From positions 15,296,428 through 15,360,427 of the forward strand of contig NC_090402.1 in NCBI RefSeq assembly GCF_036365525.1: 64,000 nt of DNA, given 5' to 3'. The stretch comes from Heterodontus francisci. Lineage: Eukaryota. Below are positions 1-45,325 of the stretch, piece after piece (the stretch's first letter is position 1; each line of letters begins with the position of its first letter). The notes beneath the pieces are model-generated. The model did no database searches. It was given only the letters and a program-made list of their open reading frames with translations, and was not told the origin of the DNA. The translations under genes were made by a program, and so were the position numbers.

Positions 1-3000
1 CCTGCTCTTGTAGCCACAGTATTTATATGGTTGGTCCAGTTAAGTTTCTGGTCAATGGTAACCCTGAGGATGTGGATGGTGGGGATTCAGCAATGGTAAT
101 GCTGGTGAATATCAAGGGTGTTGGTTAGATTCTCTTTTGTTGGAGATGGTCATTGCCTGGCATTTTGTGTGGTGCAAATGTTACTTGCATGTCAAGACTG
201 AATGTTGTGCAGGTCTTGCTGCATGTGGGCCTGGAGTATGTCAGTATCTGAGGAGTTCTGAATGGTACTAAACACTCTTAAATCATCAGGGAACATCCCC
301 ATTTCTGACCTTATTGATGAAGCAGCAGACAATGGTTGGGCCTAGGACACGACCCTGAGGAACACCTACAGCGATGTCCTGGGGCTGAGATAATTGGCCT
401 CCGGCAACCACAACTATTTTCCTTTGTATTAGGTGTGACTGCAGCTAATGGAGAGTTTCCCCTGAATCCCATTGACTCCAATTTTCCTTCGGCTCCTTGG
501 TGACACATTCAGTCAAATGCTGCCTTAATATCAAGGGCATTCACTCTCATCTCACCTTGGAATTCAGCTCTTTTGTCCATGTTTGGACCAAGGCCGTAAT
601 GAGGTCTGAAGCCGAGTGGCCCTGGCGGAACCCAAACTGAGCAACAATGATCAGGTTATTGCTGAGTAAGTGCTGCTTGAGAGCACTGTCAACGACACCT
701 TCCATCACTTTGCTGATGATCGAGAGTAGACTGATTGGGTGGTAATTGGCCAGATTGGATTTGTCTTGCTTTTTGTGGACAGGACATACCTGGGCAATTT
801 TTCACATTGTCAGTAGATGCCAGTTGTAGCTGTACTGGAACAGCTTGGCTCGGGGCATGGCTAGTTCTGGAGCACAAGTCTTCAGTACAATAGCTGGGAT
901 GTGGTCAGGGCCCATCGTCTTTGCCAATCCAGTGTGTTCAGCCATTTCTTGATATCATGTTGAGTGAATTGAATTAGCTGAAGAATGGCACCTGTGATGC
1001 TGGGGACATCAGGAGGACCTGAGATGGATCATCCACTCAGCACTTCCGATTGAAGATTGTTGCAAATGCTTCACTTATCTTTTGCACTGATGTGCTGGGC
1101 TGCCCCATCATTGAGGATGGGGATGTTTGTGGAGTCACCTCCTCTGGTTAGTTTAATTGTCTACCACCATTCATGACCAGATGTGGCCAAGATTGCAGAG
1201 CTCTGATCTGATCTGCTGGTTTTAGTATCGCTTAGCTGTTTAGTATGTTTGTAGTCCTTCCTGTATTGTAGCTTCACCAGGTTGGCATCTCATTTTTAGG
1301 TATGCCTGGTGCTGCTCCTGACACACCCTACTACACTGAAGCAGTCCGTGTCCATATGCAGCAAGACTGGGACAACATCCAGGCTTGGGCTGATAAGTGG
1401 CAAGTAACATTCGTGCCACACAGGTGCCAGGCAACGACCATCTCCAACAAGGAAGAATCTAACTTGACGTTCAATGGCATTACGGATGTTCAATGGGACT
1501 ACGATTGCTGAATTCCCCACTATCAACATCCTGGAGGTCACCATTGACCAGAAATTGAACTGGACCAACCACATAAATGCTGTGGCTACAAGAAAAGGTC
1601 AGAGACTGGGAATTCTGCAGCAAGTAACTCACCTCTTGACTGCCCAAAGCCTGTCCACCATCTACAAGGCACAAGTCAGGAGTGTGATGGAATACTCTCC
1701 ACTTGCCTGGATGGGTGCAGCTCCAACAATACTCAAGAAGCCAGCATCCAGGTCAAAGCAGCCAACTTGATTGACACCCCATCCACCACCTTCAACATTT
1801 ACTCCCTCCACCACTGACACACAGTGACAGCAGTGTGTACCATCTACAAGATGCACTGCAGCAACTCGCCAAGGCTTAGACAGCACCTTCCAAACCCGCG
1901 ACCTCTACCAACTAGAAGGACAAGGGCAGCAGATGCATGGGAACACTACCACCTGCAAGTTCCCCTCCAAGCCACACAGCATCCTGACTTGGAACTATAT
2001 CTCCGTTCCTTCACTCTTGCTGGGTCAAAATTCTGGAAGTCCCTTCCTAACAGCACTGTGGGTGTAACTACAACCCAAGGACTGCAGTGGTTCAAGAAGG
2101 CAGCTCACCACCACCTTCTCAAGGGCAATTAGGGATGGGCAATAAATGCTGGCCTTGCCAAGATGCCTACATCTCATGAATAAATAAAAAAAACTCCTCA
2201 TTAAACCAGAGTTGGTCCCCTGGCTTGATAGTAATGGCACAGTGAGGGATATGCCAGGCCATGAGGTTACAGATTGTAGTGGAATACAATTCTGCTACTG
2301 CTGATGGCCCACAGTACCTCATGGGTGCCCACTTTTGAGCTGCTAGATCTGTTCTGAATCTATCCCATTTAGCATAGCAGTAGTGCCACACAGCATGATG
2401 GAGGGTGTCTTCAGTGTGAAGACCAGACTTCATCTCCAAAAGGCCTGTGTGATAGTCAATCTTACCAATGCTGTCATGGATAGATGCAGCTGAGAATGAG
2501 GTCAAGCAGGTTTTTTCCTTTTGTTGGTTCTCTCACCACCTGCCACGGGCCCATGTTGGGAAATATGTCCTTCAGGACTCGGCAACCTCGGTCTGTAGTG
2601 GTGCTACCAAGCCGCTCTTGGTGATGGACATTGAAGTCCCCCACCCAGAGTACATACTGTGCCCTTGCTACCCCCAGCGTTTCTTCCAAGTAGTATTCAA
2701 CATGAGGAGTACTGAATCATCAATTAAGGGAGGGCTGTAGGTGGTAATCAGCAGGCAGTTTCCTTACCCATGCCTGTGACTTGATGGCATGAGACTTCAT
2801 GGGGTCTGCAGTCAATGTTTAGGACTCTCAGGGCCACTTCTTCCTGACTGTATCCCACTGTGCCACCACCTCTGGTGAGTATGGTGATGGAAGAATCTGG
2901 GACATCGGCTGTAGGATGTGATTCGGTGAGCATAACTATGTCAGGCTGTTGCTTTATTAGTCTGTAGGACAGCTCCCCCAATATCAGCACAGATCCCCAG

Positions 3001-3010
3001 ATGTTAGTAA
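1..3010 (-). mobile_element. Degraded CR1/L2-group LINE (endonuclease-RT region), interrupted by a same-family plus-strand insertion
   Basis: Minus-strand peptides WVGDFNVHHQE..GS..TD and PDIVMLTES are APE endonuclease motifs. The sequence resumes at 2194 after the insertion. Confidence 0.8.
1336..2193 (+). mobile_element. 5'-truncated CR1/L2-group LINE 3' end
   Basis: IQAWADKWQVTF and IYKAQVRSVMEYSPLAW; 3' tail ggcaataaatgctggcc...atgaataaataaaaaa. Confidence 0.85.
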
Positions 3011-3510
3011 GTGGACTATGCAGGGTCGGCTGGTCAGGATGTGACTTTGTCGTTTCTGGTGCCTTGGTTGATGTCAGGTGGTCCCATCAAGTTTTATTCT
3101 AATTTGACTTTTCTTTAGTGGTTTGACACAACTGAATAGCTTGCTAGACCATTTCAGGGGGGCAGTTAAGAGACAACCACTTTTCTATGGGTCTGGATTC
3201 ACATGTAGGCCAGACCAGGTAAGGATGGCAGATTTCCTTCCCTGAAGGACAGTAGTGATCCAGATGATTAAATGCATATCTAGTAGTTTCATGATCATTA
3301 CTGAGACTAGCTTTTTATTTCCAGCTTTATTAATTAATTTAATTTAAATTTTCCAGCTGCCGTGGTGGAATTTGAACTCAGATCTCCACACCATTGGTCT
3401 GGATCTCGGGATTACCTGTCCAGTAACGTCATTACTATGCTACAGTTCCCTTAAGTGTCTACAAATGTAGGTTCCAAATATCACTTCAATTTTTTGTATT
3501 TATTTCAGGC

Positions 3511-5919
3511 ATGTTTTCAGTCACTGATGTTTCAACCTTGGAAGGCAAGAAACCTGCCTTCCGGGTCTTCAAACCTTGGTGGGACACTTTCATGGATTAT
3601 CTGACTGTTATTATGGTGATGTTAGCTATCTTTGGCTGCAGCACACAGCTTTACCTGGATGAGACTTTCTGCTTGCCGCACCCCAATGAAACTGAAGAAA
3701 CCAAAGGTGGAGCATATAATGAGATACCTTCAACTCTGCAAATAACTCCAAGAATATCCGATATCAGTGCCAATCCGCAAGTATATATGAATCCAGATCC
3801 ATCTCCTATCAGACAAGGGAGGGTTACAAAGTTATACAATTGGCAGTATCATTTTGTCAACCAAATATGTTACAGTCAAATTCCCTGGTTTACCAGGTTC
3901 TTCTCTTATCTAATTTTATTTCATACAGTTGTCCTGATTATCCTCAGTAACTTCTGTTTCACATATCCTAAAACAAGCTCCAAATTGCAACAATTTCTTG
4001 ACATCCTTCAAAAGTGTTTTCAGTCACCATGGACATCCAAAGCCCTATCTACAGCAGTCTGTGTAGATGCCAATGAACTGGAAGAGTCAGAACCACAGAA
4101 GACCACTGAAAGTGACGATCGTATCAGTATTAAAGGTGATGCATCGACTGTTAAAGTTCCCACACGCATTCGCTCAAACATAATAGGATCTAGCTCAACC
4201 ATGGACAAGAAGGATGCAGAGCAAGCCAAAGCTTTGTTTGAGAAAGTAAGGAAATTCAGACTCCATGTTGAAGAGAAAGATACAATCTATAAATTATATA
4301 CTGGCCAAACATTGTTTAAAACAATACATTGCTTAATTATTATTGGTTACTTTCCAGCCTATGTCTATGATGTCGACTTCAATAATTTATGTGAACCTGA
4401 TGCAATATCATTGGTTTATTACAAGACTTTCAATTGTACTTATACCACTGCTCGTTTCATCGGGAAAATGGCCCTGCTGTATCTGTGTTTAGTGGTTATC
4501 TATTGGCTACTCTGTATTCACACAATATTTTGGGTTTTCAGAAAACGTCTGAAGCAATACTCCTTTGAGAAACGAGGTGAAAGCCAATTCAGTGATATCC
4601 CTGATGTAACAAATGACTTTGCTTTCTTGTTGCATTTGATTGATGAGTATGACACTTTGTATTGCAAACGTCTCGCAGTCTTCCTCTCAGAGGTGAGTGA
4701 GCAAAAACTAAAATTGTTAAGTTTAAATAATGATTGGACTGTGGAGAAGGTGAAGCAACATCTAACAAAAACTATGAAGGACCAGTATGAATTGTACCTC
4801 TTCATGCTATCAGGAATTCCTGAGTCTGTCTATGAAGTTACTGAGCTACAGGTCTTAAAGCTGGAGTTGTGTAGTAATGTTAAAATATCCAACAAAATAA
4901 CCCAACTTGATCAATTGGAAGAAGTCTGGCTCTCGCATTGTGTGACTGAAGTTACACCATCAGCTTTGATGTGGCTGAGAAACCAATTGAAAAAAGTGGA
5001 AGTTAAATATGTGAGTCGTGATGAAATCCCTGATTGGATCTACAAACTGACCCAGCTCAAAGAGCTGTACCTCACTGGAAAGCTAGCCATTGAAAAAAAA
5101 GCTCTGGAACTGGAATCTATGAAGGGACTTCGCTCTCTGAAAGTCCTTTACCTCAAAACGAGTCTCTCTAAAATACCCTCCACCATCATTGATGTTGCAT
5201 TCCACCTGCTCAAGCTTTGCATTCACAATGATAAGACTAAGCTCATGAGCCTGAGTATCTTAAAGAAGATGGTCAATCTGACTCAAATTGAACTTCACAA
5301 CTGTGAGTTGGATAAAATCCCAACTGCCATTTATGCCTTATCCAAACTTCAAGTCTTGGACCTTAAAGGTAACAATCTTAGCAAAATTGAAGAAGTTGTC
5401 AACTTGCAATATCTGCAAAAGTTATCCTGTTTGAAGTTCTGGTTCAACATGATCAAGACCATCCCTCCAACTATTAATTTAATCAAAAAGCTTGAGTATC
5501 TTTACTTATCAAACAACCAAATTGAGGTTTTACCAAAAGTCCTTTTCACCATTGAGAAACTACATTACTTTGATGTGCACAGTAACAACATTTCTGTAAT
5601 TCCAACTGATATCGGGAACCTCAAAAACCTATATTATTTGGATTTGGGTTACAATAAAATAGAAGCTCTACCAGATCAGCTTTTCAAATGTACCAAGCTC
5701 ATGACTCTCAAGCTAAGCAATAACTTAATCTCATCCCTCAGCTGGAAGGTCTCAAAGCTCAACCAACTATCACAGCTGGAGCTCCAAGGAAACCACTTGG
5801 AAAAGCTCCCAGTGGAAATAGGACAATGCACTATGATGAAGATTAATGGATTTGTGATAGAACAATATGTTTTTGAGTCACTTCCTTTAGAAATAAGAGA
5901 AAAGATGGGTGGTAGTTAG
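3511..5919 (+). CDS. LRRC8-family volume-regulated anion channel (VRAC) subunit, divergent LRRC8D-like paralogue, 802 aa, single coding exon
   Basis: Intact ORF with KPWWD, KCF.SPWT.KALS, EQAKALFEKVRKFR and SDIPDV.NDFAFLLH motifs. Four TM segments are followed by a long LRR domain. A splice acceptor (polypyrimidine + cag ending 3508) lies just before the ATG, and AATAAA is at 6063-6068. Confidence 0.95.
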   Translation: MFSVTDVSTLEGKKPAFRVFKPWWDTFMDYLTVIMVMLAIFGCSTQLYLDETFCLPHPNETEETKGGAYNEIPSTLQITPRISDISANPQVYMNPDPSPIRQGRVTKLYNWQYHFVNQICYSQIPWFTRFFSYLILFHTVVLIILSNFCFTYPKTSSKLQQFLDILQKCFQSPWTSKALSTAVCVDANELEESEPQKTTESDDRISIKGDASTVKVPTRIRSNIIGSSSTMDKKDAEQAKALFEKVRKFRLHVEEKDTIYKLYTGQTLFKTIHCLIIIGYFPAYVYDVDFNNLCEPDAISLVYYKTFNCTYTTARFIGKMALLYLCLVVIYWLLCIHTIFWVFRKRLKQYSFEKRGESQFSDIPDVTNDFAFLLHLIDEYDTLYCKRLAVFLSEVSEQKLKLLSLNNDWTVEKVKQHLTKTMKDQYELYLFMLSGIPESVYEVTELQVLKLELCSNVKISNKITQLDQLEEVWLSHCVTEVTPSALMWLRNQLKKVEVKYVSRDEIPDWIYKLTQLKELYLTGKLAIEKKALELESMKGLRSLKVLYLKTSLSKIPSTIIDVAFHLLKLCIHNDKTKLMSLSILKKMVNLTQIELHNCELDKIPTAIYALSKLQVLDLKGNNLSKIEEVVNLQYLQKLSCLKFWFNMIKTIPPTINLIKKLEYLYLSNNQIEVLPKVLFTIEKLHYFDVHSNNISVIPTDIGNLKNLYYLDLGYNKIEALPDQLFKCTKLMTLKLSNNLISSLSWKVSKLNQLSQLELQGNHLEKLPVEIGQCTMMKINGFVIEQYVFESLPLEIREKMGGS

Positions 5920-6394
5920 AATGAGAAGCATCAGATATCTGTAGTTTAGTTACAAAGAAGTTGTTACCTCATGAAAAAGATGCTTGATGTTAAGGGGGAA
6001 AAAAGCAACTAATTTGAACTAAATCCACCTATCATTGTACATTTTATGGCTGATGGATTTTGAATAAAACAATGACATAAACCTCTCATATTGCCTAATA
6101 TTATATTTTGATTGTTATCCTTTGTTGCAGGCCCCTCTCCAGGGCTTTATTTAAAATTTTGTTCTTGGGATATGATCAATTCTGAGAATTTTATTATTGC
6201 TCCTAGTTGTCCTGAGAATATGATGGTGGGCCATCGCCTTCAACTACTGTAACCCTTGGTGTAACATAGAGAATTTCAGAATATAACAACATTGTACACA
6301 TTTAAATCAGGATGGTGTGTGACTCTGAGGGAAATTTGAGAGTCAATGATGTTCCCAAAACATTGCTGCTTTTGTTCTTCTAGTTAATCAAATT

Positions 6395-7157
6395 CATTTT
6401 GGGAGGACTAACAAGGCAAGGGAATAGACAATGGATGGTAGGATCCTAGTAAGGACAGATGGTCAGAGGGACCTTGGTGTACTTGTCCATAGATCACTGA
6501 AGGCAGCAGCACAGGTAGATAAGGTGGTTAGGAAGGCATATGGGATACTTGCCTTTATTAGCCAAGGCATAGAATACAAGAGCAGGGAGGTTATAACGGT
6601 GCTGTATAAAACACTAGTTCGGCCACAGCTGGAGTACTGTGTACAGTTCTGGGCACCATACTATAGGAAGGATGTGATTGCACTGGGGAGGGTGCAGAGG
6701 AGATTCACCAGGATGTTGCCTGGGCTGGAGCATTTCAGCTATGAAGAAAGACTGGATCGGCTAGGGTTGTTTCCCTTAGAGCAGAGAAGGCTGAGGGGGA
6801 ACATGATTGAGGTATATAAAATTATGAGGGGCATTGATAGGATAGATAGGAAGAAACTTTTTCCCTTAGCAGGGGACATAGATTTAAGGTAAGCGGCAGG
6901 AGGTTTAGAGGGGATTTGAGGAAAAATATTTTCAGCCAGAGGGTGGTTGGAATCTGGAACACACTGCCTGAAGGGGTGGTAGAGGCAGGACCCCTCACAA
7001 CATTTAAGAAGTATTTAGATGAGCACTTGAAAGGCCATAGAATACAAGGCTACGGACCATGTGCTGGAAAATGGGACTGGAATAGATAGGTGCTTGATGG
7101 CCGGCACAGACACGATGGGCCGAAGGGCCTGTTTCTGTGCAGTATAACTCTATGACT
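6395..7157 (+). mobile_element. CR1 LINE 3' fragment
   Basis: LYKTLVRPQLEYCVQFWAP, SYEERLDRLGLF and a typical CR1 3' UTR (gggccgaagggcctg). Confidence 0.9.
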
Positions 7158-8519
7158 CATAGAGCTGGGGGATGCTGTTGAAGTGAGTTTATTGAGTTAC
7201 TGCAGCACATCTCGCAGATCATACATACTGTATCCACTGGCCTCTGATGATAGAAGGGTTGGATTCTGAGACGCCGATCAAATGAGCTGCTCTGTCCTAG
7301 ATGATGCTGAGCTTTCTCAGTGTTGTTGCTGAGTGGTGTGTATTCCATTATACTTCTGAGCTGAGACTGTAGATGGTGGAGGGGCTTTGAGGTGTCAGGA
7401 GGTGTGCTATTTGTCAGAGTACCAGCTTTTTTTTCCTAATCTTGTAGCCATGGGATTGATATGAGGGGGGGGGGGGGGCGGGGTTTCAGTGATGGTGGTG
7501 CCATTGATGATTGGGGGAGATGGTTGGGCTTTTTTATATAGCACTGGTATATAATATGGCACAAATATTGCATACCACATGTCAGCCCAAGCTTGGCTTC
7601 TATCTAGCTCCTTCTGTAGGTTGGTATGGGTTATTTCATTATTGGAGGAGTTGTAAATGGACTGAACACTGCTGAATTGCCTGCAAACAGCCACTCCTGA
7701 TCATGTGAAAGGAGGAAGAACATTGATGAAGCTACCAGCCCCAATTCTGTCTCCACCCTTTGTCTTCATGTGCACTTTCAACATATCACTACATAATCAA
7801 TCAGATATGGGAAGTCTGGTTAACTCTCCCCTCTCTAACCTGGTGGTGCTGTGGTCAATTATACAATTTACTACCACCCTGAGGTCATCATAAACCAACA
7901 ACCAAGTCTCACACTTTGCTGATCTGCTCTACTTTCCTGTTGATAGTTTGACATCAAGCTAGTTTAAGACCTGGCCCTAAATGAATATTTAAACAAAGGG
8001 AGAAATGTTACTAAGTTTTCAGGTTTCATTGATCCGCACGCAGGCTGATTGCACATAGATCAACACAGAAAGTGCCTAACTTTATTTACAAAGAAAACTA
8101 ATGATCAGAGAAGGTAAAAGCAGTGGATCACAGGATGCATTCATACAGCAACAAGTGAACTGCGAGTAACTTCATGTTTAGAGAAGCTCCTCTAAAACCC
8201 AATTTTACTTTGAGTTTAAATTGCTGTGCAGACAGTTGTCATCACTGTGTCCTGGCACGTGTACAATGATTTCCCAGCATTCCGAACAATCCTGGGAATC
8301 AAGTGGGAAATCCTTTTAGTTCACATAAATGTAATTGTCATGTGTGCAGTTGTGAAATCATTGTACAGTTCGCATGACACAGTGATGACAACAGTCGCCA
8401 TGGCGATTTAAACTCAGTGCAAAATTAGGGTGTTAGAGGAGCTTCTGCAGGGTTCTGTTTAACTTTCTATCTTCATCTGCCTTACTTGTTACTTTACTCT
8501 TAAGTTTTGAATATGAGTT

Positions 8520-11420
8520 GCAGGTCTACAGGAATGGTAGGGAAAAAGGTAGAAGGGGAGGAGTAGCCTTAGGGATTAAGGATGAAATTAGTTCAATGAT
8601 GAGAGGATATAATAAGAGGTAAGGAGGCAGTGAAGACTTTATGGGTAGAATTGAGAAATAGAAAAGGATTTAATACTGCAGTGGGAATTGTGTATAGGCC
8701 TCCTGGTAGCAGCTGTGATGTGGCAGAATGTACAAATGCAGAAAATGGACAAACATATAGCAAAGCCGTGTAATTTTAATGGGGGAATTTTAACTTTCAT
8801 ATAGTTTGGAATAAGCAGAAAAGTAGTGAATTTCTTGAGTGTTTTCAAGAAAGTTTTCTGCAATAATATGTCCTAAAACTAACAAGGACCAGGCCGCATT
8901 AGATTAATAATGAGTAATGAGCCAGATTTAGTTAACAGCCTAACAGTACGTAAACATTTATTTAATAATAATAATATGATCAAGTTCAATGTTGTTTTTG
9001 AAAGGGAGAAATGTGGAACAACTACTAAAATTCTAGATTTATGTAAGGCTAACTTCAATGTGAAGAGATAAAGACTGTTCAAAGTAAGCTAGGCAAATCT
9101 GCTAATGGCTAAATTGGCAGCAGATCAATTGTTCAAAAACAATTTAACCTGATACGGAACCGGTTTATAACCCCATGGGACAGGAGCTCTATTCGTCAAA
9201 AAAAAGCCATGGATGACAAAAAGAGGTGAGAGACTATATAAAGCTAAAATAAAAAGCATACCAGAATGCAAAAAAAGCAGAGATCCTGGGACAGATACAA
9301 ATTTCAAGAAAAGATGTCAAAACAGATGGTAACAGCTACAAAAAGGAGTATGAAAAGAAATTTGCAAGGGATATCAAAATCAAGTAAATTTTTTATAACT
9401 ATGATAGGAAAAAGAGTGTGGTCAGGAGCAATGTGGGCCCCTTGAAAACTGATAACACTGATATTGTAAATGAAAATAAGGAAATAGCAGACATGTTGAA
9501 TTTGAAATGCGTCAGTATTTAAAGTACAGGAAAAGGATAGCATGCTGATATCCCATTGAATCAGGGACAGGAACTCACCAAAACGAATATAAACAAAATA
9601 CCAGTAATGAAGAAAATAATGGCACTAAAGAGTGACAAATTCCCAGGACGAGATGGTTTTTATCCCAGGGTTTTGACGGAAGTATGTAAGAACATTACAG
9701 ATCCCCTAACTATGATCTTCCAAAGTTCTCTGATCCGGAACTCTTCCTTTAAATTGGAAAATTGCTCGTCACTCTGCTATTTAAGAAAGGTGAGAGGGGG
9801 AAACCAGGGAACTATGGGCCAGGTAGCCTAACATCTGTTGTTGGGAAATTACGAAGAGTCTACAATTAAGGATGGAATGTCTGAACAGCTTTCAGATTTA
9901 AGAACAGGTCATACCTAACAAACCTGTTGATTTTTGGAGAGGTGACTAAATTCCATGGATGCCTATGGATGGCGGCACAGTGGCGCAGTGGTTAGCACCG
10001 CAGCCTCACAGCTCCAGGGACCCGGGTTCGATTCTGGGTACTGCCTGTGCGGAGTTTGCAAGTTCTCCCTGTGTCTGCGTGGGTTTCCTCCGGGTGCTCC
10101 GGTTTCCTCCCACACGCCAAAGACTTGCAGGTTGATAGGTTAATTGGCCATTACAAATTGCCCCTAGTATAGGTAGGTGGTAGGGAAATATATAGGGACA
10201 GGTGGGGATGTGGTAGGAATATGGGATTAGTGTAGGATTAGTATAAATGGGTGGTTGATGGTCGGCACAGACTCGGTGGGCCGAAGGGCCTGTTTCAGTG
10301 CTGTATCTCTAAAACTAAAACTAAAAACTAAATAAGCAATTTGATAATGTCCCTTATGAGAAAGTGTTAGCAAAAGTTGAAGCTCATGGAATTGATGACA
10401 AATTAATTAGGAAATTGGCAGGAGAAAGAGAGTAGGGATAATGGACAGGGACTGTTAATTGGCAGGATGTGACTAGTGATATCTCACAAGGATCTGTGAT
10501 GTGGCCTGAACTATTCACCATATTTATGAATGATTTAGATGATTGGATAGAGAGCCACATATCCAAGTTTGCCGAGGACACAAAAATGGACAGCATTGTA
10601 AGTAGGGCAAGGGAAGCATAAAATTACAAAGAGATATTAATAGATTAAATGAATGGGCAAAAATGTGACAAATGGATTTCAATGTAGGCAAGAGTGAGGC
10701 CATCTACTTTGGAGCTAAAAAGAATAGAACAAAGTACTTTCTAATAGTGAAAAGCTAGAAACAGTGGAGGTCCAAAGAGACTTAGGGATCCATGTACATA
10801 AATCATTAAAATGTCATGGACAGGTACAGAAATAAACAAAAAGGCTAATTGCTTGCTGGACTTCATATCTAGAGGACTCGAATACAAGGGACTAGAAGTT
10901 AGGCTACAGATATACAAAGCCCTAGTGAGATTACACTTGAAGTACTGGCTTCAGTCCGAGAAACACCCCTTAGAAAGGATATATTGGCCTTGGAGGGAGT
11001 GCTGTGCAGATTTATGAGAATGATACCTGAACTCCAAGGGTTAATTTATAAAGAGAGATTACACACACTGGGGTTGAAGTCCCTGGAATTTAGAAGGTTA
11101 GGGGTGATTTTGTCAGCTTTCAAGATATTAAGGGGAACAGATAGGAGAGATAAAGAGAAACTATTTCCATTGGTTGGGGTGATTAGGACTGGCCTAAAAA
11201 ATAGAGCCAGATGTTCAGGAGTGAAGTTAGGAAACACTTCTACAGGTAAAGGGTGGTAGAAGTTTTGAACTCTCTTCTGCAAACTGGAGTTGTTTCCCAG
11301 GTCAGTTGTTAATTTTAAATGAAGTTGACAGATTTTTGTTCACCAAAGATATTACAGGATATGGGGCAAAAGCAGGTTCAAGGGGTTAAATGGCCAACTC
11401 TGGTTCCTATGCTCCTGAAA
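8520..11420 (+). mobile_element. Old degraded CR1 LINE, interrupted by a SINE
   Basis: Fragmented endonuclease/RT peptides (LKSDKFPGRDG.YPRVL, IYKALVRLHL). Confidence 0.75.
9971..10331 (+). mobile_element. tRNA-derived V-SINE/HE1-like SINE
   Basis: A-box TGGCGCAGTGG, B-box GGGTTCGATTC, V-type core, CR1-derived tail and a (ctaaaa)n end. Confidence 0.88.
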
Positions 11421-11591
11421 GACCGTATTTAAATTGTGGTCTGGGATCTGTGGATAGCTCCAGCTCCTGGGCTTTTTGATCCAACAGTTTCCAATGTGAT
11501 GAGCTCTGAGATCATTGGCCACAGACAGTGGTTGGCATCCTACCATTTATGAAAGATGATGGACATGCAGCAAACAATCCATTTAGGTGGA

Positions 11592-12024
11592 AACATAGGA
11601 ACGGGAGTAAGCCATTCAGCCCATCGAGTCTGCTCTGCCATTCAATATGATCATGGCTGATCATCCACTTCAATGCCTTTTCCCCACATTATCCCTATAT
11701 CCCTTTATGTCATTGGTATTTAGAAATCTGTCAATCTCTGCTTTAAACATACTCAATGACTGAGCTTCCACAGCCCTCTGGGGTAGAGAATTCCAAAGAT
11801 TCACAACCCTCTGAGTAAAGAAATTTCTCCTCATCTCTGTCCTAAGTGGCTCCCCCCTTATTTTGAAATTGTGTCCCCTGGTTCTAGACTCCCAAACCAG
11901 GAGAAACAGCTGCATCTACCCTGTCTATCCCTTTAAATATTTTATAGGTTTCAATGAGATCACGTCTCATTCTTCGAAACTCTAAAGAATACAGGCCCAG
12001 TTTCCCCAATCTCTCCTCATAGGA
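11592..12024 (-). mobile_element. CR1 3' fragment
   Basis: ESRTRGH..KIRG...RRNFFTQRVVNLWNSLP. Confidence 0.88.
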
Positions 12025-12146
12025 CCATCTGCGCCAACCGGTCCTGGCAATGCGGAACGCAGTGCATGCGCAGAGAGCAGGAGCCCGTTTGCGCATGTGC
12101 GCAGGTTGGCGCAGTTGGATGACGTCAGTGGCCGGCTGCGTTGTCA

Positions 12147-12851
12147 GAGAGACCTTGGGGTGCAAGTACATAGTTCACTGAAAGTGGCAACACAGGTAGA
12201 CAGGGTGGTGAAGGTGGTGTATGGCATGCTTGCCTTCATCGGCCGAGGCACTGAGTACAAGAGTTGGGACGTCATGTTACAGTTGTACGTAACATTGGTT
12301 AGGCTGCATTTGGAGTACCGTGTGCAGTTCTGGTCACCGCACTACAGGAAAGATGTGATTAAGCTAGAGAGGGTGCAGAAAAAATTCATAAGGATGTTGC
12401 CTGGTTTGGAGGGCTCGAGTTATAAAGAGAGGTTGGATAGGCTGGGTCTGTTTTACCTGGAGCGAAGGAGGCTGAGAGGGGACATGATAGAGGTATATAA
12501 AATTATGACAGCCATAGATAGGGTAGATAGCCAGAGTCTGCTTCCCATGGTAGGGGTGACTAAAACTAGAGGGCATAGGTTTAAGGTGAGAGGGAGGAGG
12601 TTTAGAGGGGATCAAAGGGGTAAATTTTTCACACAAAGAATAGTGGGTCTCTGGAATGAGCTGCCTGAGGAGGTGGTGGAGGCAGGAACAGTAGCAACAT
12701 TTAAGAGGCATCTGGACAGGTACTTGAATGAGCAAGGCACAGAGGGATATGGAATTAATGCAGGCAGGTGGGATTAGTATAGATAGGCATTATGGTCGGC
12801 ATGGACGCGGTGGGCCGAAGGGCCTGTTAATATGCTGTACGACTCTATGAT
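12147..12851 (+). mobile_element. CR1 3' fragment with an intact reading frame
   Basis: Part of the 226-aa ORF 12097..12777 (RDLGVQVH, LEYRVQFWSP, FFTQRIVGLWN). Confidence 0.9.
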
Positions 12852-13137
12852 TTTGTAACCGGCTTCAGTGACCAATCAGTTCGGAATATTGCGTTAACTC
12901 TACCCTTATTTTTGAACCGCTGCGATCCTTAAATATTTGACCGCAATTGTTGACAACGCGATCGGTAGGTGGCGCTGTTCTGGCACATGCGCAGATACAG
13001 CATGTGCCACGAAAACGTCACAGCCTGCGACTGTAGCAGCTGCCAGGACTAAAGATGGCGCTGCTCAAAAAATCACAGAGATGAAACCTAACAAACACGT
13101 GGCAGAATACAATGGCCGGAGTGAGAGAGTGGAGCGG

Positions 13138-13346
13138 GCCGGGGACAGCAGCGCGGAGGCCGGGGAGATCAGCGCGGGGGCCGGGGACAGCAGCGCGGGG
13201 GCCGGGGAGATCAGCGCAGGGGCCGGGGAGATCAGCGCGGGGGCCGGGGAGAGCAGCGCGGGGGCCGGGGAGAGCAGCGCGGGGGCCGGGGAGAGCAGCG
13301 CGGGGGCCGGGGAGAGCAGCGCGGGGGCCGGGGAGAGCAGCGCGGG
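13138..13346 (+). repeat. 21-bp GC-rich minisatellite (GCCGGGGAGAGCAGCGCGGGG), ~10 copies
   Basis: Tandem units read directly from the sequence. Confidence 0.95.
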
Positions 13347-13359
13347 AGACCAGCGGTAG

Positions 13360-13540
13360 CGGAGAAAGAGGGAGAGGGAGGGGGGGAGAAAGAGGGAGAG
13401 GGAGGGGGGAGAGAGAGGGAGAGGGAGGGGGGAGAGAGAGGGAGGGGGGAGAAAGAGGGAGAGGGAGAGAAAGGGGGAGGGGGTGAAAGAGGGAGGGGGA
13501 GAGGGAGGAAGGGGAGAGAGTGGGGGGGGGGGGGGAGCAG
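13360..13540 (+). repeat. GA-rich polypurine low-complexity tract
   Basis: Almost pure G/A. Confidence 0.9.
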
Positions 13541-14306
13541 CGGAACGGAAGAGGAGTGCCTTTTTCTGTGCATGCGCCATAAACACAACAGCAAAAGACT
13601 TACTGGCCAGTCCCTGGACCCGGTGACACCAAGGTCTTCGCACGCTCGCTCCCCGCGGCTCTCTACGGCCTCTTGCTTCCGGCCCACTCCATTCAGCCGT
13701 TCCCTCCAGCTGCGGATGCCCAATCCAGTTGCTTTCTCCCCTACCCAGTTGCTTTCTCTACTTCTCCTCAGTACTTCAGGCATTGCAACTGTTTGGTCCC
13801 TGCATTTTGCGTGCTCCCTCTCCCCACCCCTCCCCGCACTCTCCACCCCTCCCCCTCTTCACCCACCCCTCCCTCTACCCCCCCACCGTAGTTGAATATC
13901 TGAAGTGCAGTTGCAAAGTCGGGGAAATAGCATGCAAAACAAAACCTCAACAATTCTGGGTTTAATTATTGAAAAGTTTTATTAAGTTCATTAAGTATCC
14001 GAGGAACTGCTGTGCATGGATACATGAGTGTTGTGTCCAGCATTCCCGTTAGACAGACAGGCCGAGTCTCTGCGATGCACAGCTAAAGAGATTGTTCCTG
14101 GAGAGCCTTGTGGTGAATAAACGCTTGGCTCTCTATTCCACTACTGTATTGTCCATGTGAAGAAGGCAAAGTCACAAGAGTTTGAGCTCAGTCTATTCTT
14201 GGTGAATGTTCCCCAAACGCATCCCAATGTGCATTCCCAATTCATCCATAAATGCAATGTTCCTTTCCACATCGTGATGAGCTCCGCAGCATGATCTAGT
14301 TGCCTT

Positions 14307-14760
14307 CGTTGCTTGAATGCTGACCTTAAGTCTCAAGGATTGTTTTCTCGACGGCATGTTTTACATGAAAAGAAATAAAGCAAATCAGAGTCAGAGCTTG
14401 CCTCCCTCCATCCACTGAAATTACTGTTGCGCACACCTTTTTAAGTTCTGCAGTGAAGGCACCAATTGATAACGTCGCCAATGAAGCACTTATTACCCAC
14501 CTCAGATGCAGGAATCAGCACATCCTTGCGTCATCTCCTGCACTGCCTCCTTTGCTGGAATGCCGTCCTTAAGTGTCAAGGATTGTTTTCTCAAGGGCAC
14601 GTTTTACATGAAAGGAAATAAGGAAAGAACATCAGTGTCAGAGCTTCCCTCCCTCCAATGATATTACTGTTGAGCATGCTTTGTGTTCTGCGGTAAAGGC
14701 ATGTACTGATAACACCGCCAATGAATCACTTAGTACCCACCTCAACTGTAGGAGTCAGGA
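14307..14760. repeat. Diverged tandem duplication with a ~240-bp unit
   Basis: ccttaagt.tcaaggattgttttctc...tacccacctca occurs twice (~14325 and ~14567). Confidence 0.85.
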
Positions 14761-14940
14761 TGATGTTACTGCCCCTATCTCGTGATGGTTCAATGCTGCT
14801 CTCAGGGAAAACATGAATGATGTGAGGGTGCTGGAAAAGAAGCACATTTCTTTTGGGCTATGAACATAAAGCTGGCCATTTAGCCCAGCAGTTCCCTGCC
14901 AGTGGTTATGTTACTCGTGCGTCTTTCCATCCATTCCCAT

Positions 14941-15951
14941 TTAATGCTGCCTACTATCACCAGTTGTGTTCACAGCAAGAGCATTCACATTTCTGCTACC
15001 ACTGGACACGGCATGCTTGTTTCTTTTAGTGCTCAGTCTCTTCTTGCTGAATGTTCCCCAAGTGCTTGACCCCTTTGGACACCCTCTCTGCTTGACAGGC
15101 AGCAACTGGCAATTGCGGAGTCTCACAAGGCTCTGCATGGTTGTTTCAACGTCGGATGGGGTAACAGGTGGCTGTGTGTCCATGAGCACTGCCCTGATGG
15201 GTGTAGGAGCAGGCAACTGTGTGCCCATGAGCACTGCCCTGATGGGTGTAGGAGCAGGTAACTGTGTGTCCATGTGCACTGCCCTGATGGGTGTAGGAGC
15301 AGGTGACTGTGTGCCCATGAGCACTGCCCTGATGGGTGTAGGAGCAGGTGACTGTGTAACTGAGCAGCAAGGAGAGGGTACCGCAGGTAGGGGAAGTGGA
15401 GATTTGAACAGGTAGGCATATGTATGGTCCATCAGATCATTAGGCCAGGGGGTGAGACGCTCAGGATCCAGGGTTTGCGACACGTGACTGATGTCCAGCG
15501 TGCGGCCACCTCCATCCGAAGGTGCTTCCGGGCAATTGTTGGGCATAGTAAATGGCTCCATCTCATCAGCCAGTCCTTGCTGCCAGCGGAGAGTCTGTTG
15601 CCGCAGCCAGTCCAGTCTCCTCATGAATGCTGCCGTTCCACTCTGCAGAACGGCCTGTTGTTGCTGGTACAATTGATCTGAAAGCAAGCGGTATTTTTCA
15701 TTGTGACTGAGGGGCCTTGGCTGTTCCTCTGTAATCACAATGGCAGCAGCCATGCCTGTCGTCGTTGGTGTCTGAGATGCACGCCAGCGACAATTGGGGG
15801 CGAGCCTGTCCAAAGGCAGACCCAGATGCCTCTGCACAACAACAGCATGTTTGCAGGGCAACAAAGTCTGAATGGAGAAGATGCAGCTGCAGGTAGCCTG
15901 GCCATCATGTATCTGCAGTGTGTACTGTTTGGCGCCAGAAATCACAGTCAC
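14941..15951 (-). CDS. SWIM zinc-finger ORF resembling the C-terminal half of MULE/ZSWIM1-3-like transposase proteins (probably partial or spliced)
   Basis: CSC-x9-CKH SWIM motif, then a LSHNEKYR...F..RL..L.....W helical segment, four 15-aa Pro/Thr repeats and an AT-hook-like KQRGCPKG. There is no ATG start; the ORF follows a possible tag/cag acceptor. Confidence 0.6.
   Translation of the reverse strand: MTVISGAKQYTLQIHDGQATCSCIFSIQTLLPCKHAVVVQRHLGLPLDRLAPNCRWRASQTPTTTGMAAAIVITEEQPRPLSHNEKYRLLSDQLYQQQQAVLQSGTAAFMRRLDWLRQQTLRWQQGLADEMEPFTMPNNCPEAPSDGGGRTLDISHVSQTLDPERLTPWPNDLMDHTYAYLFKSPLPLPAVPSPCCSVTQSPAPTPIRAVLMGTQSPAPTPIRAVHMDTQLPAPTPIRAVLMGTQLPAPTPIRAVLMDTQPPVTPSDVETTMQSLVRLRNCQLLPVKQRGCPKGSSTWGTFSKKRLSTKRNKHAVSSGSRNVNALAVNTTGDSRQH
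15173..15360. repeat. 45-bp coding tandem repeat, 4 copies (TQSPAPTPIRAVLMG)
   Basis: ccatgagcactgccctgatgggtgtaggagcagg is repeated. Confidence 0.95.
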
Positions 15952-16197
15952 TGTGCCTTCATCCTGCTACATGCGGTGGCCCAGACAATAGAAATGTTTT
16001 CAGAGCAACTCACAACAGGGACTGGAGAACATGCGGTGGCCCAGACAATGGAAATGTTTTCAGAGCAACTTACCTTGGAACAATCTCCTGCGTCAAATAA
16101 AAATGAAGCAAGTCTCCAAAACGAATAAATAATTCAGATAAAATGCCCGACGAAACCTCCCCTCCTTGCACTTTCAAAAAGTCGCGCCGAAGCTTTG

Positions 16198-16375
16198 GCG
16201 CATGCGCAGAAGCCAAACAGGCGCGTCCGCGAGAAAGACGAATAACTCGATGACGTCATCTGCGCATGCGCAGACAAACTTATCGGCAGGTCGTCTGCGC
16301 ATGCGCATATCTGTCCTGGTAAGTCGGGCCGCAGCGCATGCGCAGTGGGCATGAGGCCGTCTGCGCATGTGCGCA
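16198..16375. promoter_or_regulatory. Cluster of NRF1-type GCGCATGCGCA palindromes plus a CRE
   Basis: GCGCATGCGCA at 16198, 16262, 16297 and 16334, a variant at 16362, and TGACGTCA at 16251. Confidence 0.65.
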
Positions 16376-16446
16376 CCGCGGCGCATCCTGATGACGTTGT
16401 CCGATGCAGTCGCGTTGTCATGAATTACTTTGTATTTTAAAATATC

Positions 16447-32462
<16,016 letters not shown>

Positions 32463-35762: not shown

Positions 35763-36083
35763 TAAGTGGATAGATTGGCCTAGATTGAGTGACTCATCAA
35801 TTTTTCCCCTTAAACTTCCCCCCGATTTCTTTGGGGAAGTTCCATCCCTCTCCTCAGTACTACTTTTCCCTACTGACAGATTACAATTTGCTCATGTTTA
35901 CTAAGTCTTAACATACACTTTGTGAATGTTGTTCTGCATTACTGCAGGTTATTTTATCATACCACTGTCCCCTTTGTACCACTCCTGGTTGACTTGGCAT
36001 TACTAAGGGGCACATCAGAACTAATATTCACTGCATTTTCCAATACGTTTTATATATATTTTATATATATTTTCCATGTATGA

Positions 36084-36522
36084 TTCCTGGGATGGCTGGA
36101 CTGACGTTTGAGGAGAGATTGAGTTGGTTAGGATTATATTCGCTGGAGTTCAGAAGAGTGAGGGAGGATCTCAGAAACCCATAAAATTCTAACAGGACTT
36201 GACAGGGTAGATGCAGGAAGGTGGTGGGGGAGTCCAGAACCAGGGGTCATAGTCTAAGGATACGGAGTAAACCTTTCGGGACTGAGATGAGAAATTTCTT
36301 CACCCAGAGAGTGATGAGCCTGTGGAATTCGCTACCACAGAGAGCAGTTGAGGCCAAAATATTGTATGTTTTCAAGAAGGAGTTAGATATAGCTCTTGGG
36401 GCAAAAGGGATTAAAGGATATGGGGGGAAAGCGGGAACAGGTTACTGAGTTAGACGATCAGCCGTGATCATAATGAATCGTGGGGTAGGCCCAAAGTGCC
36501 AAATGGCCTACTATTTTCTATG
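36084..36522 (+). mobile_element. CR1 3' fragment
   Basis: GESRTRGHSLRIR, FFTQRVMSLWNSLP. Confidence 0.88.
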
Positions 36523-36904: not shown

Positions 36905-37170
36905 AACAAAAAACAAAATACTGTAGATGATGGAAATCTGAAATGAAAACACAAAATTCTGGAGAGACTCAGCAAGTCAGGAAATATTTGTAAAGAAAGG
37001 TAAATGGTTAACCTTTCAGCTATAATCCTTTGTCAGAACACTTATGGGAATAGTTATACCTGGAATATTAACCTTTTCCCTTTTGTTACATTTGTTGCCT
37101 GATCTGAGTGTTTCCAGTAATTTTGATTTTTTGTCTGATTTCCAGCAGCTGCAGTATTTTAGTTTTTGCA
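36905..37170. mobile_element. Degraded Penelope-like inverted terminal remnant
   Basis: aaaatactg.agatg.tggaaatctgaa mirrored by gatttccagca.ctgcagtatttt. Confidence 0.6.
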
Positions 37171-41017: not shown

Positions 41018-41528
41018 GCTATTATAGGAAGGATGTGATTGCACTGGATAGGATGCAGAGGAGATTCACCAGGATGTTGCCTGGGCTGGAGCATTTCTGC
41101 TATGAGGAAAGACTGGATAGGCTGGGGTTGTTTTCCTTGGAGCAGGGAAGGCTGAGGAGGTACCTGATTGAGGTGTACAAAATTTTGAGGAGCATTGATA
41201 GGATAGATAGGAAGAAACTTTTGCCCTTAGCGGATGGGTCAATAACCAGGGGGCATAGATTTAAGGTGAGCAGGAGGTTTAGAGGGTAGTTGAGGAAAAA
41301 CATTTTCACAGAGGGTGATTGGAATCTGGAACACACTGCCTGAAGAGGTGGTAGAGGCAGGAACGCTCACAACATTTAAGAAGTATTTAGATGAGCACTT
41401 GAAATGCCATAGCATACAAGGCTACGGGCCAACTACGGGAAAATGGGATTTGATTGGATGGGTGCTTGATGGTCGGTGCAGACGCGTTGGGCCGAAGGGC
41501 CCGTTTCTGTGCTGTAAAGATCTATGAC
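41018..41528 (+). mobile_element. CR1 3' fragment
   Basis: Highly similar to 6660-7157. Confidence 0.88.
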
Positions 41529-44625: not shown

Positions 44626-45109
44626 GTGTATTCTGACCTCACTGTTGTTGTGGTACATGTGCATCTCCTGACCTGATTTTTGGTAAGAAAACGATGAGGA
44701 ATTTCATATTTATTTCCTCAAATTTGGGAGGACACTTTTTTCAACGGATTCATTGACCAACAATTTGATAGAAATCTAAAAACTGATTTTAATAATCCCT
44801 ACTTATCAAAAAGAATGCAACTGATTACATGCCAATTCAAAGAGTCAACCTGTGTTTACTTTTAAGAGGCACATCAAATCAGTTGACGTTTAAAATCCAA
44901 ATGAGGGAATTTCATTCCAGATGACTGAGACTCGTGAGGTTTGCTACTGTATTGACTTAGAAATACGTGACAATAACCACCGGGCACATATACACTGCAG
45001 GGATCAGGAAACGTATTGCATATGCCCAACACAAAATTTCCAAACAGGCAAAATAAAAAGTAAATTTAATATCAAAAATAGAGTACCCAAAGTTTAATTG
45101 ATATAATAT

Positions 45110-45325
45110 AAACACAAGAAATGCTGGAACCACTCAGCAGGTCTGGCAGCATCTGTGGAAAGAGAAGAAGGGTTAACGTTTCGGGTCTTCCGAAGAAGGG
45201 TCACTAACCCGAAACGTTAACCCTGCTTCTCTTTCCACAGATGCTGCCAGACCTGCTGAGTGGTTCCAGCATTTCTTGTTTTTATTTCAGATTTCCAGCA
45301 TCCGCAGTATTTTGCTTTTATTTTA
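45110..45325. mobile_element. Penelope-like inverted terminal (hairpin) insertion
   Basis: ~75-bp inverted arms around gggtcttccgaagaagggtcactaaccc; same family as 49734-49970. Confidence 0.8.

Follow-up and report, generated by a model that had tools for sequence, protein, structure and literature searches.

The element and its host gene

The stretch of DNA analysed here (the window: 64,000 nucleotides of the shark Heterodontus francisci, assembly GCF_036365525.1, contig NC_090402.1, positions 15,296,428 to 15,360,427 of the forward strand) contains the gene PHYHD1 and, just upstream of its start codon, a repeated element of about 3.5 kb with short inverted ends. The coding exons of PHYHD1 run from 16447 to 32459 on the plus strand and make up a complete coding region, its protein 100% identical to H. 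francisci PHYHD1 and mostly mapped by tblastn, in which short exons near 21744-21792 and 26200 are placed weakly. A first-pass annotation, made from the sequence alone, had described the element as a non-autonomous shark DNA transposon with a MULE/ZSWIM-type fragment, which agrees with what follows: its relatives carry a MULE domain and it is highly repeated. The annotation had not taken up the host context, in which the element lies within the 5' leader of PHYHD1 and its end is found in a spliced mRNA. We put at roughly 70% the probability that the PHYHD1 leader carries a non-autonomous copy, reduced by an internal deletion, of a high-copy shark family of Mutator-like elements (MULEs).

The two ends share an exact 11-bp inverted repeat, TGACAACGCGA, at 12951-12961 on the plus strand and 16410-16420 on the minus strand. 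These are the only two matches in the window, where the mean expected by chance is 0.01, and two or more matches were found in 0/100 shuffles. A second motif, GCRCATGYGC, occurs seven times (12091, 12983, 16198, 16262, 16297, 16334 and 16363), every time in an element end, for a chance mean of 0.09. The observed-to-expected CpG ratio (CpG o/e) is 0.89 in the left end and 1.41 in the right end, against 0.31 for the window, and the interior holds a 21-bp minisatellite (ten units), a purine-rich tract and a 45-bp minisatellite (4.3 units). The first-pass annotation had reported these features, and all were recovered. The perfect palindrome that it obtained by joining the two ends is also real, but is uninformative about a circular intermediate, since any perfect inverted repeat yields one.

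The features of the locus are collected in Table 1. We take the GCGCATGCGC and GCGCATGYGC repeats to be NRF1-type sites and the TGACGTCA at 16251 to be a CRE-like site; to judge from its sequence, the right end that carries them is a candidate transposase-binding and promoter region. Rfam gave no match within 11500-17000, and remnants of N-terminal, Ulp1 or PHD domains were not found in 11400-16700.

Table 1. Features of the element and of the PHYHD1 5' region (positions in the window)
Feature	Position	Strand	Remarks
Second, diverged copy of the right end	12022..12146	+	76% over 96 nt to 16302-16397; ends GCGTTGTCAG, resembling the consensus of 26 contigs of other copies
3' fragment of a long interspersed nuclear element (LINE), interrupting the second right end	12147..12850	+	70-72% to window copies 6462-7155 and 41023-41527; GTCAG microhomology junction
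TTTTGTA beyond the LINE, probably the tip of the second right end	12851..12857	+	TTTGTA in common with 16429-16434
Host remnant between second end and left terminus	12858..12936	+	79 bp; CpG o/e 1.52; CCAAT box (GACCAATCAG; CCAAT at 12872)
Candidate left target-site copy, TTAAATAT	12929..12936	+	
Left terminal region	12937..12961	+	exact 11-bp core 12951-12961 and poorly matched outer 14 bp; 18/25 versus right end
GC-rich 21-bp minisatellite (ten units), then purine-rich repeats	13136..13537	+	
Internal duplication of about 243 bp, downstream of the transposase stop	14301..14758		79% over 222 nt; also detected as window repeat families D7, D9, D12 and D15
Open 341-codon frame, stop to stop	14941..15966 (frame 14944-15966)	-	C-terminal part of a ZSWIM3-like MULE transposase
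60-bp repeat, two units, at the deletion breakpoint	15969..16073		repeat family D11; other copies have extra units or run on into the transposase frame
CpG-island-like right end	16140..16434		five GCGCATGYGC repeats and TGACGTCA at 16251; repeated in the genome
PHYHD1 exon 1, as far as seen	16368..16473	+	53 nt or more of element end, then a short leader, MVTKELGAA (16447-16473), GT donor
Right terminal region	16410..16434	-	11-bp core 16410-16420 and a further 14 bp or so belonging to the family
Candidate right target-site copy, TTAAAATAT	16437..16445	+	1 base before the PHYHD1 ATG
PHYHD1 exon 2	18849..19007	+	E 1.1e-12 to human PHYHD1 (PDB 2opw); 100% to H. francisci P0019

A fragment of a ZSWIM3-like MULE transposase

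The minus-strand frame contains a SWIM finger (19.6 bits, at the Pfam cut-off), a helical tail and the 45-bp minisatellite (15165-15357). It corresponds, at 46% identity, to residues 502-818 of P0001, an 855-aa H. francisci protein annotated as ZSWIM3-like that matches seven Pfam families, including ZSWIM1-3_RNaseH-like (E 1.3e-26), MULE (9.4e-16), ZSWIM3_N (6.1e-10), DUF5575 and DUF5575_N; recombinase families are 0 of the seven. The closest relative of the frame is P0025, another horn-shark protein (83% over 192 aa), which has the 45-bp minisatellite too and a MULE domain, PF10551. The SWIM frame and the lack of a DDE domain in this copy, both seen in the first pass, are upheld, and no match to P0001 residues upstream of 502 exists in the window; the longer relatives with a catalytic domain that it had suggested looking for are found in P0001 and P0025. 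Among the Pfam matches of the window frames, P0001 or P0002-P0013 there is no tyrosine recombinase family, and among those of P0001 or P0002-P0013 no KDZ or PIF/Spy-type family.

The catalytic residues of the family are spread over damaged copies. In P0001 the first D and the E position are gone; P0025 retains the two D residues and lacks H and E; P0003 has the E but begins after the D residues. Each of the DGTY, DKD, CxxH and NNxxExEN motifs is present in at least one shark copy, and all four in no copy examined; the C, C, C and H of the SWIM finger are invariant in the protein alignment. As far as these alignments can be read, the annotated shark copies are each broken differently. Within Heterodontus there are four relatives, the window copy included, each truncated in its own way. 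Related proteins, labelled ZSWIM3-like in RefSeq, occur in Carcharodon, Cetorhinus, Pristiophorus and Stegostoma. In a tree of 11 rows the five shark rows form one clade (support 100/99), with long branches elsewhere that make deeper placement unsure. The nearest named full-length proteins outside sharks are MULE-domain proteins of the molluscs Elysia and Aplysia (32-33%) and of Phytophthora (28%), and further relatives show a MULE-SWIM-(Ulp1)-PHD architecture. The protein searches returned no mammalian ZSWIM protein; relatives of P0001 were confirmed for 0 of 3 pattern matches in viral contigs and 0 of 38 in prokaryote genomes; and against PDB profiles the invertebrate tails matched PHD fingers, the one other match being weak and unrelated. 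P0006, which consists of bacterial Ig repeats, was dropped as a spurious match.

A relative without a DDE domain (P0002, P0014-P0016), in which a ZSWIM3_N domain is joined to the SWIM part, forms one 90% cluster over Carcharodon and Cetorhinus and is a candidate domesticated gene.

We find it scarcely credible that the window sequence is itself a domesticated, single-copy ZSWIM-like host gene that is not mobile and lies head-to-head with PHYHD1 on a bidirectional promoter. Its 341 codons have remained open and the DDE-less relative is at least 90% identical between Carcharodon and Cetorhinus, as one might argue for such a gene, but the depth of the sequence exceeds that of the flank by a factor of hundreds to thousands, the first in-frame ATG lies downstream of the SWIM finger, the frame breaks off at a repeat, and a single species holds several differently broken paralogues.

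A highly repeated family, with an internal deletion at a 60-bp repeat

Contigs of four public runs (4 of 20 listed) were aligned to 15365-17300, which takes in the element's right part and the flank beyond it. A single contig of run X1, at depth 4.05, covers 16404-17300 with 0 differences, hence X1 comes from the same species as the window. Summed contig depth in X1, which does not equal copy number, ranges from 957 to 289,324 over the 16 element bins (957-19,028 over the 14 non-satellite ones) versus 4.05 in the flank, a contrast of more than 200-fold in every bin. At the right end it drops from 2077 (bin 16405-16469) to 4 (bin 16470-16534). The window copy differs from about 89% or more of the depth at about 13 listed sites in 1056 bp (11 rows being outside this list), a divergence of about 1-2%.

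At the 60-bp repeat, 17 contigs go on with another unit. Six others run on at 15968 with letters that read ..VSVK into the QQDEG of the window, matching EVSVKQQ of P0001. Because these contigs continue into the transposase frame, longer copies exist and the repeat is the deletion breakpoint, where the window copy has lost the catalytic half of the transposase. Contig joints that skip internal parts are seen in other copies as well. The repeat itself reaches a depth of about 289,000 versus about 4 in the flank, far above other parts of the element, and may be a transposon-derived satellite; on the minus strand each unit has a GTAAGT/GTGAGT donor-like motif.

In runs X10 and X13, from differently labelled organisms, 15365-16069 is matched at about 99% (3 differences in 483 nt and 5 in 500 nt), with a common inversion-type junction that leads from 15579 into the reverse of 13559-13585. 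This match may reflect slow shark evolution with filtered records, contamination or horizontal transfer. RNA-labelled runs of a third organism contain a small share of the element's words. Metagenome contigs with the end motif (19 loci) were treated as chance: 5/19 have a BLAST match to the element, all of at most 22 nt.

These data also bear on the possibility that the locus is a composite, in which a separate, very abundant repeat resembling a miniature inverted-repeat transposable element (MITE) or a promoter, or the end of a sister clade, came through deletion or recombination to stand beside another MULE's SWIM segment and left end; the two tips would then stem from different insertions, and no target-site duplication (TSD) would be expected. 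Such an origin would fit the orphan right end at 12022-12146, the resemblance of the two ends in the 11-bp core and one motif only, and the cover of X10 and X13, which includes 15365-16069 and not 16080-16420; heteromorphic Mu elements with dissimilar terminal inverted repeats (TIRs) are described in maize (PMC10401008). We nevertheless judge it unlikely. X1 depth exceeds 900 in each bin from the frame to the right end, with no single-copy gap, and copy-specific differences are similarly sparse on both sides. The transposase frame reads outward from the right end, the direction one would predict were its promoter located there, and a TSD-like pair, described below, stands weakly where symmetry predicts it.

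Termini and target site

The first-pass annotation had set the right boundary at 16420, the outer limit of the 11-bp repeat. In 26 contigs of other copies, which diverge from the window at 16397, the consensus holds GCGTTGTCA followed by GGAATCACT (agreement 0.66 over 30 letters; 17/145 loose-end rows shown). Positions 16421-16429 of the window, TGAATTACT, are identical to GGAATCACT at 7/9 letters, so good a match being found in 94/63,991 window 9-mers, and a contig from another locus aligns ungapped over 16303-16434. The second right end, which has a CpG o/e of 0.96 and lies between two LINE fragments with neither a left end nor a frame seen beside it, appears to finish in the same TTTGTA: of six further LINE 3' ends of similar sequence that were inspected, none is followed by the TTTTGTA that stands beyond its LINE (chance about 0.0014, with 3 positions allowed). 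On account of the consensus, the ungapped contig and this TTTGTA, the right terminus is about 16434 rather than 16420.

With family sequence reaching about 14 bp further, the supposed right flank (tgaattact) is most likely element sequence, and the TGA that had been remarked at both junctions results from setting the boundary in the wrong place. The earlier statement that there is no 8-11-bp duplication is right for 12951/16420 (4/8, 4/9, 1/10 and 3/11 identities), but it was judged at the wrong place, because the family sequence continues past 16420. By symmetry with the right end, the left terminus would lie near 12937. Two other pairs were rejected: a 4-bp AATT duplication (ends 12949/16422), whose right-hand AATT is inside sequence common to other copies, and an 11-bp pair at 12937/16434 (8/11), too diverged for such a young copy. 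The candidate target-site pair TTAAATAT/TTAAAATAT, at ends 12937/16436, consists of an 8-bp and a 9-bp copy with one A-run indel between them; 14/300 AT-matched random pairs score equally, so that it is not significant by itself, and the pair comes from one full copy only.

It is very unlikely, in our estimate, that the element ends exactly at 12951 and 16420 after all and integrated without duplication, blunt or through a circle, a sequence preference perhaps making the right flanks of its copies alike. The 11-bp inverted repeat does have TG..CA ends, an 8-11-bp TSD is absent at these positions and none is clean further out, the outer 14 bp of the left end barely resemble those of the right, and a diatom group of MULEs is entered as 'No TSD' in Table 1 of Dupeyron 2019 (PMC6446971). 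However, 16421-16429 is common to other copies (7/9), one of which aligns to 16434, and the second copy in the window apparently ends in the same TTTGTA. The transposase has a standard MULE core with 0/7 recombinase families in P0001, MULE chemistry has been demonstrated with 8-9-bp TSDs (PMC5499845), and the junction palindrome is automatic. Blunt or circle-mediated integration, as the first pass had proposed, is thus unsupported: the right boundary was wrong, the DDE core is an ordinary MULE one, and the longer relatives have no recombinase domain.

The element end in PHYHD1 transcripts

The PHYHD1 start codon is 12 bp from the element if the latter ends at 16434, or 26 bp if it ends at 16420. 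A 389-nt contig of run X5 covers 16368-16473 with 0 differences, crosses from element to host, extending 53 letters to either side of 16420, and goes on with the first letters of exon 2 (18849); because it is spliced to exon 2, the first exon of at least some PHYHD1 mRNA includes the element end. Depth of X5 across the intron 1 bins past 16534 is 0-2.2. The exon-1 peptide MVTKELGAA appears as MVTDELSTA or MVTDELGAA in 3/5 other proteins returned (Cetorhinus, Carcharodon and Pristiophorus), and this conservation in other sharks makes the ATG exon older than the insertion. The depth of X5 in the SWIM region (112) was not used as a sign of element expression, since read-through from many copies could give it.

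Upstream of the element, the host remnant 12858..12936, with what is presumably an NF-Y-type box (GACCAATCAG), would probably be the displaced ancestral PHYHD1 promoter, now 3.5 kb from exon 1. We lean towards the CpG-rich right end of the element acting as an outward promoter for PHYHD1. Somewhat doubtful is the alternative that the old CCAAT promoter at 12858-12936, or else a set of weak starts close to the ATG, still drives PHYHD1, the element end being read-through or a spliced-in leader. The high CpG o/e of the remnant (1.52) suggests that it is still unmethylated, and the RNA contig breaks off at 16368, as contigs do in repeats, so that the transcript may reach further 5'; its depth is a whole-contig mean. 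On the other hand, read-through would need a leader of about 3.5 kb of GC-rich repeats, or a splice that is absent from the 12 joints listed (the aligned stretch began at 15365 and could not show such a joint), and the densest CpG and motif content is found at the right end, beside the ATG.

Another X5 contig joins the element end at 16366 to 180 other letters, which start GC-rich and contain CGCCGCCATATT, a YY1-like site as we take it. This stretch is possibly a second host promoter.

Other repeats in the window

LINE 3' fragments that are 66-86% alike, presumably of CR1/L2 type, are found at 6462-7156, 10458-10866, 11592-12021, 12147-12850, 36081-36512, 41020-41528, 47798-48949 and 59650-63023; two of them flank and cut the orphan element end at 12022-12146. 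The window also contains fold-back MITE-like repeats of about 200-240 bp, nearly perfect palindromes with AT-rich ends (49734-49973 and 45108-45325; partial at 36909-37017 and 37104-37166), and a more diverged palindromic element of about 265 bp at 8182-8446, 71% self-complementary.

Discussion

Our interpretation of the locus can be set out as a series of steps. Full-length members of the family would encode a ZSWIM3-like DDE transposase with a SWIM finger, and an ordinary MULE cut-and-paste reaction, acting in trans, most likely moved the present copy. Its ends would be short imperfect inverted repeats, with the 11-bp core about 14 bp inside the termini (right about 16434-16436, left about 12937) and GCGCATGCGC repeats behind them. 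The copy would have landed 10-12 bp ahead of the start codon, in the open PHYHD1 5' leader. The CCAAT-containing sequence now stands apart from exon 1, and the insertion presumably brought about this separation of the old promoter; an earlier copy appears to have struck the same promoter about 80 bp upstream. The TSD would be the A-run-slipped TTAAATAT/TTAAAATAT, or would have been lost along with the left tip. In one sample PHYHD1 transcripts contain the element end, which may serve them as an outward-reading promoter.

Several observations weigh against this interpretation. The outer 14 bp of the left end match the right at 7/14 positions, which 1186/20,000 random 14-mers equal; the comparison with other copies covered the right end, so the left terminus rests on symmetry. 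The candidate target-site pair requires a right end at 16436, two bases past the 16434 at which both the contig and the second copy stop. A copy only about 1-2% diverged should have an intact TSD, and none is clean, while with a consensus agreement of 0.66 a target-site preference is not fully separable from element sequence. The 11-bp core TIR (18/25 when extended) is at or below the 14-500 bp range given for MULEs in PMC6446971, and far shorter than the more than 100 bp that PMC5499845 calls typical. There was no intact autonomous copy among the 6 hits of 5417 candidates, and 0 of the listed contigs join the frame to the right end. X10 and X13 do not cover the right end and cover almost none of the host flank; such a hole proves nothing. 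Finally, X5 is taken as RNA by guess and represents one sample, the same as X1, although splicing at the GT donor supports the label, and contigs reveal neither transcription start nor strand.

Among known systems the element is closest to MULE/Mutator transposons (MuDR, Muta1 and the SWIM-bearing invertebrate clades of PMC6446971). The longer copies of the family have a MULE DDE domain with CxxH and a downstream SWIM finger, and like other MULEs this is a dispersed multicopy family with non-autonomous deletion derivatives. The D..D..CxxH..W..E series is found in the family, spread with lesions over P0001, P0025 and P0003, and not in the window copy. PMC6446971 gives MULEs TSDs of 8-11 bp and reports limited evidence of them in chordates; some MULE families have no TIR. 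For Muta1, PMC5499845 shows cut-and-paste movement, with subterminal repeats that aid binding and non-autonomous ends that are unequal; repeated subterminal motifs and unequal ends are likewise found in Muta1NA1 and in the shark element. The shark family differs from MULEs described elsewhere in its vertebrate host and in a TSD that is not cleanly seen.

Other affiliations were considered and set aside by the Pfam families found. Zisupton has a SWIM finger, and the Zisupton/KDZ transposase has CxC, SAP and SWIM domains; the shark protein shares the finger, but its Pfam matches are MULE/ZSWIM RNaseH-like, with no KDZ. Spy and Crypton elements lack a TSD, which would be the point of likeness, but the matches of P0001 and P0002-P0013 include no PIF/Spy-type or tyrosine-recombinase family. 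Membership of Crypton or another circle-forming group, or of Zisupton/KDZ, was therefore rejected. The vertebrate genes ZSWIM1, ZSWIM3 and ZSWIM9 resemble the shark protein through the Pfam families ZSWIM3_N, ZSWIM1-3_RNaseH-like, DUF5575 (which we take to be linked to ZSWIM9) and DUF5575_N; they are host genes, whereas the shark sequence is a high-copy element with ends.

The position of the insertion recalls maize Mu. PMC2774946 describes a preference of Mu for regions 5' of ATGs, and according to 10.1101/2023.06.05.543741 Mu ends start transcripts into host genes in 20/33 alleles. As in Mu insertions into 5' UTRs (untranslated regions), the shark element sits just 5' of a host ATG and the host transcript includes its end. 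The shark insertion differs in being apparently old, and its outward start is a presumed one.

Vertebrate MULEs are poorly documented. The 2019 survey reports limited chordate evidence and, in the sections concerned, judges zebrafish and mammalian MuDR entries to need re-evaluation (PMC6446971); portions of PMC9004415 count 437 MULE-MuDR fossils, a RepeatMasker class, in the human genome, and passages of PMC4350176 mention low-copy human MuDr, with nothing in them on MULEs in elephant shark. A description of this family was not found in open-licence PubMed Central or bioRxiv main texts, including the parts consulted of PMC10236294, 10.1101/2021.09.26.461848 and 10.64898/2026.07.01.735963; supplements of shark genomes, Repbase or Dfam may list it. 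The shark element adds a member to the MULEs, and its host is an unusual one for them. A bolder version, which we hold only tentatively and regard as doubtful, is that this is a genuine high-copy shark MULE lineage with very short, unequal ends, whose transposase is a still-mobile relative of the domesticated ZSWIM1/3/9 and which repeatedly targets CpG-island promoters, PHYHD1 having been hit twice, and puts its own NRF1/CRE-rich end in their place.

An unusual integration chemistry would have been the more surprising result, and is unsupported. For vertebrates, a family in sharks that has a recognisable MULE core, occurs in very many copies and diverges by about 1-2% would make a clear case, and it could help to trace how the ZSWIM1/3/9 genes arose. 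At PHYHD1, the end of a DNA transposon has turned into the first exon, and probably also the promoter, for a conserved gene, an example that can be put directly to the test. If the bolder version is true, it would be a vertebrate parallel of the outward promoter of maize Mu, to which the internal match of about 99% in differently labelled organisms would add recent horizontal spread.

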